Below are positions 1,665 through 7,220 of a stretch of 64,000 bases of DNA, piece after piece. Made by a program: the position numbers and the translations under genes. The notes under the pieces were generated by a model. It searched no databases. It was not told where the DNA came from and worked only from the letters and a program-made list of their open reading frames with translations. Position 1 is the first letter of the stretch, and each line of letters starts with the position of its first letter. This stretch comes from Thermoanaerobaculia bacterium (GTDB taxonomy: Bacteria; Acidobacteriota; Thermoanaerobaculia; Multivoradales; Multivoraceae): positions 4,480,001 to 4,544,000 of the forward strand of contig OY762911.1 in assembly GCA_963666565.1 (NCBI GenBank), in the 5' to 3' direction.

Positions 1665-2058
1665 CGTCGACCGAGGCCTCGGCTCCTTCCGGCAGGGTCT
1701 CCCAGTCCGCCGCTTCGAGCAGGACCACCGGCGGCGACCGTTCGTAGAGTTCGCGGGCCACCGCGGCGCCCAGCGCCAGAATGCCGTCGAGCTCGCGCAG
1801 CACGACGGCGGCCGGCGCCGTGCCCAGACGAACGCCCTCCAGCAGCACCGAGCTCGAACTGCTCGACCCGCGCCCGTACGGCATGACCAGGACGCGGCCG
1901 GCGACACTCTCGCCGCAACGCGGATGCCGCCGGTCGATGATCGTCCCGGTAGCCGGATCGACGCCCCCCCAGAACGAAAGCGGCTCCTCGAGCCGGAGCA
2001 CCCGCCCGGCACCGGCCCCGGCCACCAGGACTCGCCCTTCAAGCGCCACGCCGCTCAC
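1636..2058 (-). CDS. Aconitase X swivel (small) subunit, DUF126
   Basis: PLSFWGGVDPATGTIIDRRHP and GRGSSSSSSVL motifs; GTG start overlaps the upstream gene's TGA (GTGA). Confidence 0.85.
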   Translation of the reverse strand: MSGVALEGRVLVAGAGAGRVLRLEEPLSFWGGVDPATGTIIDRRHPRCGESVAGRVLVMPYGRGSSSSSSVLLEGVRLGTAPAAVVLRELDGILALGAAVARELYERSPPVVLLEAADWETLPEGAEASVDVSGRLRIAG

Positions 2059-3464
2059 GGCCACAACTCCGGGTCGCGCCAGAGCCGGCCGGCCTGGGCG
2101 GAACGAACGCACTCGGCCAGGCTGCCAAAGACGACATCGAAGCCGACGTTGCCAGGCGCGTAGTGAGCGAACTTGCCCGAGTTAGTCATCAGCACGCCGC
2201 CCGCCGGCGTGCGCAGGATGGGCGCCACAACCACGCAGGTGTCGACGACGACCCGCACGCCCAGCGCGCGCAGCCGGGACAGCTCGCCGCTCCGTTCCAG
2301 GAAGTCGAGCGAAAGCCGGTTCGTGCAGACCACGAACTCCACGCTCTCCGCCGGAGGATGGCGCCGGACCAGGGGCAGCAGATCCCGGAACTCCCGCGGC
2401 GAGAAGTGGGGACTGCCGAGCGCCACGACGTCGATGGCGAGATCCCGCGCGCGGCCGTTCGCCGACGCCGGGTCCGCGCCGGGCCGGGCCGGCCGCCTCG
2501 AACCGGGAGGAGCCTGAGCCGCGGCTTCGCCCGTGGGCGGCGCAACGTCCGCCACCGTCGACAGCCGCCGCAAGGCGACCCTGAGATCGGCGGCCGTGAC
2601 CTCGATCCACTCCTCCGCTTTCCCGCCGCCCCGCGCCGGGTCATGCGAACCGAGCGCCGCTTCGAGCGTCGGCGCCTCGGGCGTGATGCCGACCGCGTGA
2701 AACAGGGCGACCGCGCCCGACGACGCCGCGGCCGCGCCCAGCGCCTTCAGGCCGTCCTCGTCGGCATCTTCCAGGCCAAGCAGCACCGGGATCCGGTTGC
2801 CGCAGCGCTCCCCGACCAGGTAGCCGATCGCCGGCAGCAACCAGGACGCCGACCGCAACGAAGGCGGCAGCGAACGCAGATCGAAGACGACCTGTCCGCA
2901 CCGGTTCTCCTCCAGGTGGAGCCCCACCGCCGGCGCGCGTCCGGCGATGGCGGCGCAGATGTCGATGAAGTCGCCGTAGCGATGGGTGCGGGCGCCGAGG
3001 ACCGAGTTCGCGAACACGATCGCGTTGCTCTCGGCCCAGGCGACCTGCTGGCCGAACGCCGGCCGCGGCGTCGTCTGGTAGGGCGCGCAGGTCCAGATCG
3101 TCCGGCAGCCCATCTCCTCGTAGCACTCCATCAGCCGCAGCGCCTTCGCCCGGCGCTCCGCCGTGCCGGCGAACTCGTTCGGATGCAGCAGGTCGAGGCC
3201 GCCGACGTTCAGCGTCGTCGGCACGCGGACGCGCGCGCCGCCGGCCACCAGGAGCTCCGCGAAGTCGACGCCCGAGTCGCCGTGGTACAGGCAGCCGTCG
3301 ATGTGGGCGCCCTCGATGTCGAGCAGCCGCTCGGCGCCGTAGACGCCGGCCATCGCGACCAGGATGCGCATGGCCGCCGCCGTGGCCTCGCCGAAGTCGC
3401 CGGCGAGCATGGAGCGGTCGCGGTCGGTCAGATCGACGGACCCGCGCATGTCCAAGCCAGCCAT
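2055..3464 (-). CDS. Aconitase X catalytic (large) subunit, DUF521
   Basis: AHIDGCLY, TCAPY, AWAESNA..FANSVLGART, LGSPH, DTCVV, MTNSGKFAHYAP motifs. Confidence 0.9.
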   Translation of the reverse strand: MAGLDMRGSVDLTDRDRSMLAGDFGEATAAAMRILVAMAGVYGAERLLDIEGAHIDGCLYHGDSGVDFAELLVAGGARVRVPTTLNVGGLDLLHPNEFAGTAERRAKALRLMECYEEMGCRTIWTCAPYQTTPRPAFGQQVAWAESNAIVFANSVLGARTHRYGDFIDICAAIAGRAPAVGLHLEENRCGQVVFDLRSLPPSLRSASWLLPAIGYLVGERCGNRIPVLLGLEDADEDGLKALGAAAASSGAVALFHAVGITPEAPTLEAALGSHDPARGGGKAEEWIEVTAADLRVALRRLSTVADVAPPTGEAAAQAPPGSRRPARPGADPASANGRARDLAIDVVALGSPHFSPREFRDLLPLVRRHPPAESVEFVVCTNRLSLDFLERSGELSRLRALGVRVVVDTCVVVAPILRTPAGGVLMTNSGKFAHYAPGNVGFDVVFGSLAECVRSAQAGRLWRDPELWP

Positions 3465-3510
3465 GGCCGGTCAGTGTAGCCACCGCCCGATGCGCGCCGC
3501 GTGCGCGCCT

Positions 3511-3648
3511 GGGTGCGCGGGTCTTCCGACCCGTATGCGGGCGGAGCCGCGGAGCGGCGTAGCCCGGACGACAGCGGCGCCGGCCTTATGGCCGGCACGT
3601 ACTTCTGGCCGCCTGCGGCGGCATGCGGGTCGGAAGACCCGCGCACCC
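3511..3648. repeat. REP-like hairpin doublet (inverted pair of GGGTGCGCGGGTCTTCYGACCCG units)
   Basis: Units at 3511-3533 and 3625-3648 in inverted orientation; same family recurs throughout the window. Confidence 0.8.
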
Positions 3649-3695
3649 GGCGCGCACCCGGCAGGCGCTTCGTTGCGTTTCGGCGGTGCAAGCTC

Positions 3696-5563
3696 CTAAC
3701 GAGGCTTCGCCTCAGACCGACGAGCATGTTCGCGGCGGTGGTCGGCCTCGGCCTTGGCGTCGATCGGACTCCGGTCGCTGCTTCAGCTGCGGAGTGAATC
3801 CGCCGTATTGTCGCTCTGCGGCGAAGGTGGCCTTAAGCTGGCCGGTGAGAAGCCCATCGACCGGAGTCCGCTGATGAAGGTAGCACGCACGGCAGCCGAG
3901 GTTCTTGAGGAGCATGTGTCGTTGACGCTGGAGTGCGTCGATCGGATGTACCTCAACGTCTACGTACCGGTGCTTCAGCGTGGCGCGGGCGCGGCCTGGT
4001 TCTTCCGGGAGGTGCGGGGCGCGCAGGTGCCGTCGTCGGTGCTGATGGCGCCGATGACGAGGCGGTTCGTGGCCGCGATCAAGGGCTACGCGCGGCAGCA
4101 TCGGATCGACATCGTCCCGTTTCGGCGCGGCGAGCGCAAGGACGACCGCACCCGCGAGTACCTTCGCCGGTGGCATGGAGGCGAGGGGGTGCTGTACGTC
4201 GGCAAGGCGCAGGAGAAGGCTCGGGTGCTGCGTACCGAGCGTCGTTACGACTCGGCGACCGACGCGGGCTATCCGTGGCTGGTGCACTCGACGGCGATGG
4301 TCAACCAGTACTACTTCTACGTGTTCGACGACGACTTCGGTCCGTTCTTCCTGAAGTTCTGCTCGTACTTCCCCTACAACGCCAAGCTGTGCATCAACGG
4401 ACACGAGTACCTCAAGCGCCAGTTGAGCAAGCGGGGGATCGAGTACGAGGCGCTGGACAACGGCATCCTGCGCTGCTCGGACCCGGAGGCGATGCAGCGG
4501 CTCGCCGACGGCCTCGACGCGGACAAGATCGACGCGCTGCTGCGCAAGTGGCTGGCTCGCCTGCCGCATCCGTTCTCCGCCGGCGACCGGCGGCGGGGCA
4601 TCCGCTACGCCGTCTCGATCCTCCAGGCCGAATTCGCCCTGACCCAGGTCTTCGACCGCCCGGTGCAGGGTCGGGTCTTCTTCGAGGAGGTGCTGCGCGA
4701 GCACCTCGACATGGGACGGCCCGAGCACGTGCAGTTGATCTTCAAGCGCCGCGTCACGCGACGCACCCCCTCGCGGTATCGCACCCGCGTCATTACCGAC
4801 GGGGTCTCCCCGTCGCTGCACGTCGACTACAAGCACTCGCGCATCAAGCAGTACCACAAGGAAGGGCGCGCCCTGCGCACCGAGACGGTGATCAACGACA
4901 CCTACGACTTCGATGTCGGTCGTTTGCTGAGAAACCTCGATGACCTCAAGAAGGTCGGCTTCGCCGCCAACCGACGCCTGCTCGGCGTCCAAACTCTCAG
5001 CCACGACTGTCTGCTCGGAGCCGAAACGCTCGACGATCTGCACCGTCCGCGGTGCATCTCGGGTCAGCGCGCTTCGGCGCTTCGCTTCGGAGACCGCAGG
5101 GTGCAGAGTCTCTTCGCCGCCCTGCTGCGCTTCAGCCTCCTGCCCAACGGCTTCCGCAACCGCGACCTGCGGCCCGCGGTCGCCAGTCTGTGCGGACTCA
5201 CGCCGGACCGCTACGGACCCTCCCGCATGACCTACGACCTGCGCCGACTGCGACTGCGGGGAATCGTCGAACGGGTTCCGCGCACCCACCGCTACCGGAT
5301 CACCGACTGGGGACTGCGCGTAGCGTTCGCCTACCACCGGACCCACGCCCGAGTGCTCGGCCCCGTCATGTCCGCCACCCTCGACCCGGAAGCCAACGCC
5401 CGGCTACGAAGAACCGTCGCCAGCTACGACCGCGAGGTCCAAAGAGCTTGGCGAGGACAGCGACTCGCAGCCTGAGGCCGACCTCCGTCACGCCGAATCG
5501 ACACGGACACCCCGAACCAAACTTGACTCAACTGTTAAGACGCCCCTTGTTCAAGGAGTCTAG
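3696..5563 (+). mobile_element. Putative unclassified IS-like element with one large ORF
   Basis: Single ORF unrelated to its neighbours, structured 5' leader, palindromic 3' end. Boundaries (CTAACG... to ...GAGTCTAG) are inferred; no terminal inverted repeats or target duplication seen. Confidence 0.5.
3874..5475 (+). CDS. Putative transposase / Rep-like protein with C-terminal winged HTH (533 aa)
   Basis: DRMYLNVYVP, YYFYVFDDDFGP, NGHEYLKRQL, YKHSRIKQYHKEGRALRTETVIN; C-terminal FRNRDLR...MTYDLRRLRLRGIVERVPRTHRY (wHTH-like); GGAG upstream of ATG 3874. Confidence 0.6.
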   Translation: MKVARTAAEVLEEHVSLTLECVDRMYLNVYVPVLQRGAGAAWFFREVRGAQVPSSVLMAPMTRRFVAAIKGYARQHRIDIVPFRRGERKDDRTREYLRRWHGGEGVLYVGKAQEKARVLRTERRYDSATDAGYPWLVHSTAMVNQYYFYVFDDDFGPFFLKFCSYFPYNAKLCINGHEYLKRQLSKRGIEYEALDNGILRCSDPEAMQRLADGLDADKIDALLRKWLARLPHPFSAGDRRRGIRYAVSILQAEFALTQVFDRPVQGRVFFEEVLREHLDMGRPEHVQLIFKRRVTRRTPSRYRTRVITDGVSPSLHVDYKHSRIKQYHKEGRALRTETVINDTYDFDVGRLLRNLDDLKKVGFAANRRLLGVQTLSHDCLLGAETLDDLHRPRCISGQRASALRFGDRRVQSLFAALLRFSLLPNGFRNRDLRPAVASLCGLTPDRYGPSRMTYDLRRLRLRGIVERVPRTHRYRITDWGLRVAFAYHRTHARVLGPVMSATLDPEANARLRRTVASYDREVQRAWRGQRLAA

Positions 5564-5639: not shown

Positions 5640-7220
5640 ATGGCGATCGACACAGCACTGCAGGAACGACTCATGGCCGCCGCGCCCTACGGCATGGGCG
5701 TCTCGGTACATGCGGACGTGGCGCCCGACCGGATGGCCGTGCTGTCGAAGTTCGGCGGCCGAACGCTCGGCGAACTGAACGCCAACGCCAACCGCCTGGC
5801 CCGCGTGCTGCGGGCGCACGGCGTCGGTCCCGACGTCGGCGTCGCCCTGCTGTGCCGGAACCGGCCCGAGTTCGTCGAGACGATCGCCGCCTGCCAGCGC
5901 TGCGGCGGCCGCATGACGCCGATCAACTGGCACCTCTCGCCCCCCGAGGTCGCCTACATCGTCGACAACTGCGAGGCCCTGGTGCTGATCGCCGACGAGG
6001 CCTTCGCCCCGGCCGTCGCCGCGGCCCAGACCGCGTCGGGCCGCCTGCGCCTGACCCTGGCGGTCGGCGGCGAAATCGAGGGCGCCGAGGCCTACGCCGA
6101 CGCGCTGGCTGCCGAAGACGGCTCGAACATCGAAGACCCGATCCTCGGCGCCCCCATGCTCTACACCTCCGGCACCACGGGCCACCCCAAGGGCGTCTAC
6201 CGCAAGGCCGACGCAACGCCGACTCCGTTCCTGCTGGCTGTCCGCGAGTCGGGCGACTTCGAGCCGGACACGGACTGCTCGCTCGTCACCGGGCCGCTCT
6301 ACCACGCCGCCCCGCTGGGCCTGAACCTGGCGATGCCGATGGGCGCCGGCGTCGGCTCGGTGCTGATGGACAAGTGGGATGCGGAGGAAACGCTCGCCCT
6401 GATCGACCGCCACCGCGTCACCCACACCCACATGGTGGCGACCATGTTCCACCGCATGCTGGCGCTGCCGCGGGAGGTCAGGGACCGCTACGACGTCTCG
6501 TCCATGCGCTGGCTGTGCCACGGCGCCGCGCCGACGCCGGTCCACGTCAAGCACAAGATCATCGAGTGGTTCGGCCCGGTCGTCTGGGAGTACTACGCCG
6601 CCACCGAGGGCGGCACCTTCTTCATCGACTCGGAGGACTGGCTCACGAAGCCCGGCAGCGTCGGCCGCACAGTCGAGGGAACGAAGTACAAGGTGCTCGA
6701 CGACGACGGCGAACCGGTGCCGGCGGGAACCACGGGCACCGTCTACTTCCAGGCCGCGGAGAACCGTTTCGAGTACTTCAAGGCGCCCGACAAGACCGAC
6801 GCGGCGTACCGCGACGACTACTTCACGATGGGCGACATGGGCTACGTCGACGAGGACGGCTACCTGTTCCTGACCGGCCGCTCGGCGGAAACGATCATCG
6901 CCGGCGGCGTCAACATCTATCCCCAGGAGATCGACGACGTGCTGCAGCAGCATCCCGCGGTCTACGAGGTCTGCACCGTCGGCGTGCCCCACGAGGAGTG
7001 GGGCGAAAGCGTCAAGTCCGTGGTCGAGGTCGACGAGGGTTACGAAGCCGGCGACGACCTGGCCGAGGAACTCCTCGCCTGGTGCCGCGAGAACCTGCCC
7101 GACTTCAAGCGCCCGCGCTCCATTGACTTCGCCACCGACCTCCCGAGGATGCCCACCGGCAAGATCCAGCGCGGTCTGGTGCGGGCGCCGTACTGGAAGG
7201 GCCGCGAGCGACAGATCTGA
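5640..7220 (+). CDS. AMP-binding acyl-CoA synthetase
   Basis: MLYTSGTTGHPKGV, YYAATEG, GDMGYVDEDGYL, PRMPTGKI motifs. Confidence 0.92.
   Translation: MAIDTALQERLMAAAPYGMGVSVHADVAPDRMAVLSKFGGRTLGELNANANRLARVLRAHGVGPDVGVALLCRNRPEFVETIAACQRCGGRMTPINWHLSPPEVAYIVDNCEALVLIADEAFAPAVAAAQTASGRLRLTLAVGGEIEGAEAYADALAAEDGSNIEDPILGAPMLYTSGTTGHPKGVYRKADATPTPFLLAVRESGDFEPDTDCSLVTGPLYHAAPLGLNLAMPMGAGVGSVLMDKWDAEETLALIDRHRVTHTHMVATMFHRMLALPREVRDRYDVSSMRWLCHGAAPTPVHVKHKIIEWFGPVVWEYYAATEGGTFFIDSEDWLTKPGSVGRTVEGTKYKVLDDDGEPVPAGTTGTVYFQAAENRFEYFKAPDKTDAAYRDDYFTMGDMGYVDEDGYLFLTGRSAETIIAGGVNIYPQEIDDVLQQHPAVYEVCTVGVPHEEWGESVKSVVEVDEGYEAGDDLAEELLAWCRENLPDFKRPRSIDFATDLPRMPTGKIQRGLVRAPYWKGRERQI

Follow-up and report, generated by a model that had tools for sequence, protein, structure and literature searches.

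The window analysed here is a stretch of 64,000 nucleotides from the genome of a Thermoanaerobaculia bacterium (Acidobacteriota; GenBank assembly GCA_963666565.1, contig OY762911.1, positions 4,480,001 to 4,544,000 of the forward strand), a genome that consists of one 4.79-Mb contig. Between the AcnX (Aconitase X) gene (2055-3464, minus strand) and a gene for an AMP-binding enzyme (5641-7220, plus strand) lies an element of 1,868 bp that recurs elsewhere in the genome and carries a single candidate transposase gene for a protein of 533 aa, confirming the lone open reading frame (ORF) between metabolic genes that a preliminary description of this DNA had picked out. The element is certainly an active or recently active insertion sequence (IS) of a huge unannotated family, and it is probably driven by a tyrosine nuclease resembling the Rep_trans replication initiators. 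Its features, all on the plus strand, are as follows.

3696..5563: entire repeated unit, 1,868 bp (six-copy comparison, empty sites, contig joint)
3696..3698: left CTA, being either the leftward portion of the target or the core of the crossover or nick (empty site; joint compatible with either side over 3 letters)
3696..3728: conserved left end, CTA-R-CGAGGCT-NN-GCCTCAGACCGACGAG (45 distinct left-end 40-mers from many phyla)
3701..3713: 13-nt palindrome GAGGC-TTC-GCCTC, 3 nt past CTA, a candidate hairpin or dimer binding site (stem invariance)
3729..3873: remainder of the 178-nt leader before the ORF, dispensable in mini-elements (joints from 3729 to 5519 and from 3731 to 5519)
3874..5475: transposase candidate gene, 533 aa plus stop (copy and homologue searches)
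3874..5013: candidate N-terminal catalytic domain, residues 1-380, a double beta-saddle like that of the TATA-binding protein (TBP) (predicted structure)
4852..4854: codon of Tyr327, candidate nucleophile in K325-Q-Y-H-K329 (invariant in 27 sequences reaching down to 29% identity)
5071..5373: winged helix-turn-helix, approximately residues 400-500, PadR/MarR-like (predicted structure)
5519..5563: conserved right end, a AACTTGACTCA block and then ...TCAAGGAGT-CTAG (right-end set; kept in mini-elements)
5560..5563: right CTAG, comprising CTA of the element or core and G of the target (copy comparison, empty sites)

Copies of the element and their boundaries

Six copies of the protein are encoded in the host genome, 5 of them 100% identical and 1 at 98%, and the DNA of the copies is similarly uniform (5 approximately 100% identical, 1 at 98-99%). 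The stretch common to all six spans exactly positions 3696-5563, beginning with CTAACGAGGC and finishing with GGAGTCTAG; the flanks all differ and divergence is immediate outside these positions. Contigs from sequencing run X1 of the same organism reach a depth of approximately 329 within the element as against approximately 57 in its right flank, a ratio that fits six copies. At all 9 same-genus orthologous loci examined the element is absent, and fewer than 180 bp separate the AcnX gene from the AMP-binding gene. The distribution is patchy: homologues are carried by 3 of 40 other genomes of the genus and, with the present genome included, by 30 of 401 genomes and 14 of 133 genera of the class. 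Among the 25 longest inverted pairs listed for the element none joins tip to tip, and the best end-to-end pair is subterminal and 75% complementary.

Directly to the left of the element lies a REP-like doublet, as the preliminary description had noted, with one unit inverted (approximately 3488-3549, minus strand) and the other direct (3603-3670, plus strand), each of approximately 50-60 nt. This short repeat has 57 further matches elsewhere in the genome, and its contig depth in run X1 is approximately 18,000 compared with approximately 57 for the unique flank. The CTAG at which the element resides is located approximately 25 nt past the second unit. An antisense ORF of 544 aa (3712-5346, minus strand) covers most of the element and is most likely a compositional artefact of this genome of 70% G+C.

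Conserved ends, tandem junctions and mini-elements

The ends were also set by copy-to-copy comparison within nine genomes. Left ends read CTA(A/G)CGAGGC..., and right ends ...CAAG-N4-CTAG, or 1-2 flank bases past it, in seven groups, with the remaining two groups breaking off earlier. Most of the first 23 positions are invariant among 45 distinct left ends, the invariance of positions 1-3 and 5-10, including the left arm of the palindrome, being partly by construction, as the pattern used to collect the ends fixes these positions. The palindrome stem GAGGC/GCCTC is the same in all 45, with loops of TTC (19 ends), TCC (15), five other sequences (10) and, once, 4 nt. On the right side, the AACTTGACTCA block (GACTCA) lies 39 nt from the tip in 20 of the 32 distinct ends, the terminal CAAG...CTAG of this set being partly fixed by the search pattern. 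Both ends are conserved across Acidobacteriota, Pseudomonadota, Planctomycetota, Chloroflexota and Gemmatimonadota.

Natural head-to-tail junctions, in which two units meet through a single CTAG or CTAA, are found in other genomes (L046, L052/L053, L059 and L029); at L052 and L053 a larger segment, comprising a mini-element and a full element, has been duplicated. This mini-element, of approximately 93 bp, consists of the ends only. An internally deleted form of the element itself, approximately 80 bp long, is represented by contigs of runs X1, X4 and X5 from two studies, which join 3729 or 3731 to 5519 and so keep left and right ends of approximately 34-36 and 45 nt, respectively. The host genome further contains a seventh left end (C1:1761758-1761894), in which 33 identical nt are followed by approximately 100 nt of unrelated sequence and then by ...CCAGGTCTAG, and which is a candidate non-autonomous mini-element of approximately 137 bp. 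Since mini-elements keep only the ends, the sequences that act in cis appear to amount to approximately 34 nt at the left and 45 nt at the right. The 178-nt leader contains nested inverted repeats, and scans of the element and its leader returned neither an Rfam family nor a sigma-70-like promoter.

Insertion at a single CTAG

The insertion point can be read from empty sites in relatives. In genome G009 the corresponding locus is alignable through the insertion point and reads ...GCAAGCTC-CTAG-ACTCGCC..., and the occupied site of the window reads ...GCAAGCTC-CTA/ACGAGG...GGAGT-CTA/G-ACTCACC... (slashes mark the junctions). For a diverged copy of the element, 4 of 6 orthologous or paralogous sites read ...GCG-CTAG-TGGTAG..., and the occupied site has the element between CTA and G. 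The target, as these two independent empty sites show, is one CTAG; as element and target have CTA in common, the insertion adds a net 1,864 bp. A contig of run X1 joins 3695 to 5560, skipping precisely 1,864 bp with 3 letters that fit both sides, at a depth of 7.8; in that material, the insertion is thus accompanied by an empty allele or a precise excision product. All six copies have A as the fourth base on the left, as do several other lineages, and others have G; the right side is CTAG in all but one of the groups with ends set by copy-to-copy comparison. This base is therefore encoded by the element, A or G by lineage, which excludes a 4-bp duplication. The pattern fits a putative cleavage site CTA/R at the left junction, at the right tip and in the target.

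The mobility of the element, its ends and its target are established by these comparisons. The preliminary description had read the locus as mobile and proposed precisely the ends that the six copies define, together with a CTA(G) target that is borne out both by the empty sites and by the contig joint; the occurrence of the element in multiple copies and its absence from all 9 orthologous loci examined differ from the single-copy syntenic conservation of a resident gene. Its statement that terminal inverted repeats are lacking holds as well. Its further statement, that there is no target duplication, stands in part: CTA is present on both sides of the element, but the empty site has a single CTAG.

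Other loci were less informative. L010 lies in a multi-copy paralogous sequence, and 4 of 7 paralogues have a 4-nt slot CCGG where L010 has the element plus CTAG, which is compatible with the above but is not a true empty site. The flank of L008 matched in no relative, the alignment of L009 breaks near the insertion point, and at L011 conservation is confined to the distal part of the flank, so that none of the three yielded an empty site. At an orthologue of the diverged-copy site (L132, in genome G005), the sequence is empty and reads CTAG-TG-CTAG-TGGTAG; this 6-nt CTAGTG duplication is absent from other relatives and may have been left by an earlier insertion and excision or may have arisen through slippage. 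The left flank of another copy in the host genome (C1:3152276-3152977) belongs to a sequence present there in at least 10 copies (85-89% identity), which are paralogous genes or another repeat family. In general, the flanks are A-rich at -5 and -4, and T often follows CTAG. The host genome contains 1,299 CTAG words compared with 5,543 expected from trinucleotides, an approximately four-fold under-representation, so that the target is a rare word in the host.

Two other modes of insertion have to be weighed against these data. In the first, an unrecognised metal-dependent transposase of the cut-and-paste type would make staggered cuts in CTAG and duplicate TA or CTA, with the TBP-like fold only binding DNA. 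CTA on both sides and the palindromic target would suit such an enzyme, and IS630 inserts at CTAG with a TA-type duplication. However, ends without terminal inverted repeats could not be bound as equivalent sites, and the element-specific fourth base leaves no room for a duplication of 4 bp. In the second, a double-stranded circle would recombine conservatively with CTAG through a CTA crossover core, following the logic of IS110 or of tyrosine recombinases but with a new enzyme. The 3-nt core common to both sides, the precise empty sites and the precise 1,864-bp skip, the single CTAG shared at head-to-tail junctions, the lack of inverted repeats and the nested inverted repeats of the leader would all agree with this scheme. 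On the other hand, the leader matches no Rfam family and is missing from mini-elements, and a target of 4 nt would need no guide. The enzymatic side of both schemes is taken up below.

A protein with a predicted Rep_trans-like fold

The 533-aa protein matched no NCBIfam model and no sequence in PDB, and in Pfam nothing beyond a weak winged-helix hit (E 0.029). Among transposase and recombinase families (DDE, DEDD/IS110, HUH Y1/Y2, tyrosine, serine), no Pfam or NCBIfam model matched; NCBIfam, which covers the ISfinder families, was taken as a proxy for ISfinder. A PDB sequence search with the family profile likewise returned nothing, and PF02486 (Rep_trans) was detected neither in the six-frame translation of the host genome nor in any of 21 relatives or 401 genomes of the class.

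An AlphaFold2 model built from a 27-sequence alignment reaching down to 29% identity is confident, with a pLDDT of 88 and a pTM of 0.77, and a second model of residues 1-380 alone has a pLDDT of 80 and a pTM of 0.80. Residues 1-380 are predicted to fold as a twice-repeated strand-helix-four strands-helix unit whose strands are long and curved. In Foldseek searches of PDB, the top matches of the full model were four chains of 4CIJ, the Rep_trans protein RepSTK1 (E 3.1e-3 to 9.3e-3, probability 0.69-0.85), and 4CIJ again headed the matches of the 1-380 model (E 2.2e-3, probability 0.90-0.91). Among the matches listed, full length was reached only by TBPs and by 4CIJ and 4CWC, the two Rep_trans initiators of solved structure. 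The viral library gave a top match at E 6.4e-7, followed by TBPs of giant viruses, several unnamed proteins and an inovirus G2P replication protein (E 1.1e-2). LAGLIDADG homing endonucleases were considered and rejected (probability 0.03-0.08, TM approximately 0.1). According to the models, the N-terminal domain is thus an extended TBP-like antiparallel sheet of the Rep_trans type.

In the 27-sequence alignment, D23, E114, Y147, H177, E253, K325, Y327, R335 and D345 are invariant, and D152, K320, K329 and E337 are conserved in at least 90%. D23, E253, Y327 and E337 each occupy a different predicted strand. K325, Y327 and K329 alternate along one strand, as do R335 and E337 along the following one, and strand parity would place all of them on one face. 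In RepC, D46, D142, R189-x-Y191-x-K193 and R212-x-E214 provide the metal ligands, the nucleophile and the religation residues (PMC4797284); D23, E253, K325-x-Y327-x-K329 and R335-x-E337 run in the same order, a likeness of order along the chain and not of superposed coordinates. RepSNJ2, of the archaeal Rep-Arvir group, has E25, D207, Y283 and E303 and, further along at 395-469, a MarR-like winged helix; mutagenesis showed Y283, E25 and E303 to be essential (PMC13107129). In residue order, spacing and overall architecture, our protein, as aligned and modelled, is very close to RepSNJ2.

These results also bear on what the preliminary description had said of the protein. It had quoted the peptide YKHSRIKQYHKEGRALRTETVIN, which corresponds to residues 319-341, and likened its K-x-Y-x-K...LR-x-E pattern to the catalytic tyrosine region of Rep_trans initiators, a likeness with which the conserved residues, their order and the predicted strands agree. 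The C-terminal winged helix-turn-helix that it reported reappears as the PadR/MarR-like domain of the model, and its failure to recognise an IS family agrees with the Pfam and NCBIfam hidden Markov models (HMMs). The comparison with Rep_trans itself stood at the level of structure, through 4CIJ and 4CWC, and failed as membership by sequence profile.

For the cut-and-paste transposase, the invariant acidic residues D23, E114 and E253, together with the conserved D152 and E337, could be cited in its favour, the TBP counted as top structural match is a pure DNA binder, and no strand bias was seen. Against it, no DDE or DEDD family matched in Pfam or NCBIfam, and no RNase H-like chain occurs among the 50 Foldseek rows listed for the N-domain or among the other rows listed; we consider this explanation unlikely. 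Conservative site-specific recombination fares no better on the side of the enzyme, given that no DEDD/IS110, tyrosine- or serine-recombinase model matched and that the fold suggests a Rep_trans-type nicking enzyme, and we regard it as similarly improbable. A third explanation, in which an unlinked enzyme moves the element and the protein serves in DNA-binding regulation, immunity or partition, would have to account for the fact that this is the sole long ORF conserved across phyla in a 1.87-kb unit found in multiple copies in many of them. Moreover, conserved polar residues are present in the N-domain and not in a winged helix alone, and mini-elements that lack the ORF are found together with full copies, which is what a transposase working in trans would lead one to expect. 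We therefore judge this explanation highly improbable.

A large family without annotation

The family is very large. A word-indexed search found at least 8,000 relatives at E<=1e-3, many of them on contigs of approximately 1.8 kb, as is the case with repeats that break assemblies, and an exhaustive search returned 11,019 representative clusters (50% identity) at E<=1e-3, of which 1,236 at E<=1e-30. Among the 120 relatives listed, none has a Pfam domain, and the four named ones are all called "hypothetical protein." In species-representative genomes, 596 of the 601 pattern matches encode a relative; the best 80 of these loci are from Acidobacteriota, Gammaproteobacteria and Alphaproteobacteria, Planctomycetota, Chloroflexota, Gemmatimonadota and others, often with 2-7 copies per genome. 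Plasmids contributed 27 matching records, all annotated as "hypothetical protein" except for one distant "ArsR family regulator," and phage records contained no match to the family. The ESM Atlas offered "hypothetical protein" clusters only, and PHROGs gave weak matches, to the winged helix-turn-helix region or to families of unknown function, for 3 of 5 members. With no Pfam or NCBIfam model and no name other than "hypothetical protein," the family is missed by annotation, by IS counting and by the diagnosis of assembly breaks.

Proposed mechanism

The explanation that we consider probable is that the insertion sequence is autonomous and is mobilised by its own Rep_trans-like tyrosine nuclease, which would nick in CTA/R at both ends and in the target. 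The winged helix, probably as a dimer, would bind the left palindrome GAGGC-N3-GCCTC and the right TTGACTCA block. We infer that Tyr327, with K325, K329 and R335 on its flanks, is the catalytic residue. Aided by a metal that D23, E253 and E337 would coordinate, it would nick one strand within or just after CTA, before the purine, both at the left junction and at the right tip. Tyr327 would thereby become linked to the 5' phosphate, the strand would be released or copied out as a circle whose joined ends re-create CTA/R, and the same chemistry at a target CTA/G would insert the element. Such a mechanism would yield empty sites with a single CTAG, CTA alone on both sides, a fourth base encoded by the element and ends without inverted repeats. 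It would also give rise to mini-elements and, because each right tip is itself a CTAG, to tandem junctions. As far as computation goes, the suggestion in the preliminary description of a poorly described rolling-circle-like transposon is supported: the element is mobile, belongs to no known IS family and has a CTAG target.

Several observations weigh against this mechanism. The sequence alone neither separates a nick after CTA from a staggered cut with duplication of TA or CTA nor fixes the exact position of the cut within CTA, for which the position given above is the presumed one. The contig joints listed include no circle junction (contigs drop rare forms), and single-stranded folding of the ends and of a natural junction was no better than that of shuffled sequences. 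The palindrome provides no covariation score, because its stem never varies. On the side of the protein, PF02486 did not match the 533-aa protein at E<=1 or 27 family members at E<=0.1, Pfam gave no match of PF25227 (DUF7845) to the protein or to 26 relatives, and hhalign against a RepC alignment returned a probability of 0.09%, a comparison in which the alignment is shallow (members 83-93% identical to the first) because the 120 RepC homologues listed are 86-100% identical. The equivalence of Y327, D23, E253 and E337 to Rep_trans residues rests on their order, strand position and motif likeness. Finally, with the origin placed at approximately 0.88 Mb and the terminus at approximately 3.2 Mb by cumulative GC skew, 3 of the 6 copies are co-oriented with replication, a small sample and a crude proxy, and 54 flanks from other genomes have a mean GC skew of -0.0015 +/- 0.0066, likewise a small sample and a crude proxy. 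The lack of an orientation bias would argue against an obligatory single-stranded target on the lagging strand, of the IS608 kind; the enzyme may therefore, like RepC, act on double-stranded and perhaps supercoiled DNA.

Relationship to known systems

The closest characterised enzymes by fold are those of the Rep_trans/MOB_T group (PF02486), which includes RepC of pT181, RepD of pC221 and RepSTK1 of pSTK1 and is represented in PDB by 4CWC and 4CIJ. The present protein differs from them in matching none of their HMMs or profiles, in having a catalytic domain of approximately 380 residues compared with approximately 230-270, with approximately 180 residues of insertions, and in using a true PadR/MarR-like winged helix as its DNA-binding domain. 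Furthermore, it is encoded by a chromosomal, multi-copy IS of 1.87 kb with two different ends and a 4-nt target rather than by a plasmid, a phage or a conjugative element.

HUH elements of the IS200/IS605 and IS91/ISCR/Helitron groups resemble our element in that they lack terminal inverted repeats and a real target duplication, have dissimilar ends and precise empty sites and use a short specific target beside the left end; the mechanism proposed here is the same in logic. By contrast, the protein has no HUH Y1/Y2 match, its predicted fold is TBP-like as opposed to the RNA recognition motif-like fold of HUH enzymes, no replication-strand bias is apparent in the 6 copies or the 54 flanks, and the same CTA occurs at both ends and in the target. 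From IS110/IS1111 the element is set apart by the lack of a DEDD match, of an Rfam guide RNA in the leader and, in mini-elements, of the leader itself. Elements of the IS630/Tc1-mariner and IS5 groups that insert at CTAG have terminal inverted repeats and DDE transposases; our element shares the target with them, but it has neither inverted repeats nor a DDE match, and its two ends differ from each other in all lineages.

Rep-Arvir (DUF7845, PF25227), represented by RepSNJ2 of the betapleolipovirus SNJ2, is similar in having a TBP-fold domain of approximately 300-380 residues followed by a MarR-like winged helix, with key residues at near-equal positions (E25, D207, Y283 and E303, corresponding to D23, E253, Y327 and E337 here), and in giving weak Foldseek matches in PDB together with TBP and inovirus Rep matches in the viral library (PMC13107129). 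Rep-Arvir is archaeal and serves the replication of viruses and plasmids, unlike the family described here, which is bacterial and IS-like and has no DUF7845 match. That 2026 paper, on the replication of archaeal viruses and plasmids, is the nearest literature (PMC13107129). Our search of the full-text literature, in which few subscription journals are covered, found no transposon or IS with a Rep_trans-like or TBP-fold transposase.

With slightly less confidence than in the mechanism, we favour the view that the element is a founding-type member of a new prokaryotic transposon class, in which a TBP-fold, Rep_trans-like tyrosine nuclease with a winged helix would serve as the transposase, CTA/R as the minimal nick and target site, and ends of approximately 80 nt would suffice in cis. 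If so, it would represent a further catalytic class of transposase, non-homologous to DDE/DEDD and HUH enzymes, tyrosine and serine recombinases and Cas1, and one that drives one of the larger IS families in soil and marine bacteria, wholly missed by annotation. Should the enzyme work as proposed, transposition would become a fourth role of Rep_trans proteins, beside plasmid replication, phage replication and conjugative relaxation, and rolling-circle-type transposition would have two or more separate origins, in the unrelated HUH and TBP-like folds. The system is small, with one protein, ends of approximately 34 and 45 nt and a 4-nt target, which makes it easy to test, and it could provide a compact tool for single-strand nicking or insertion.

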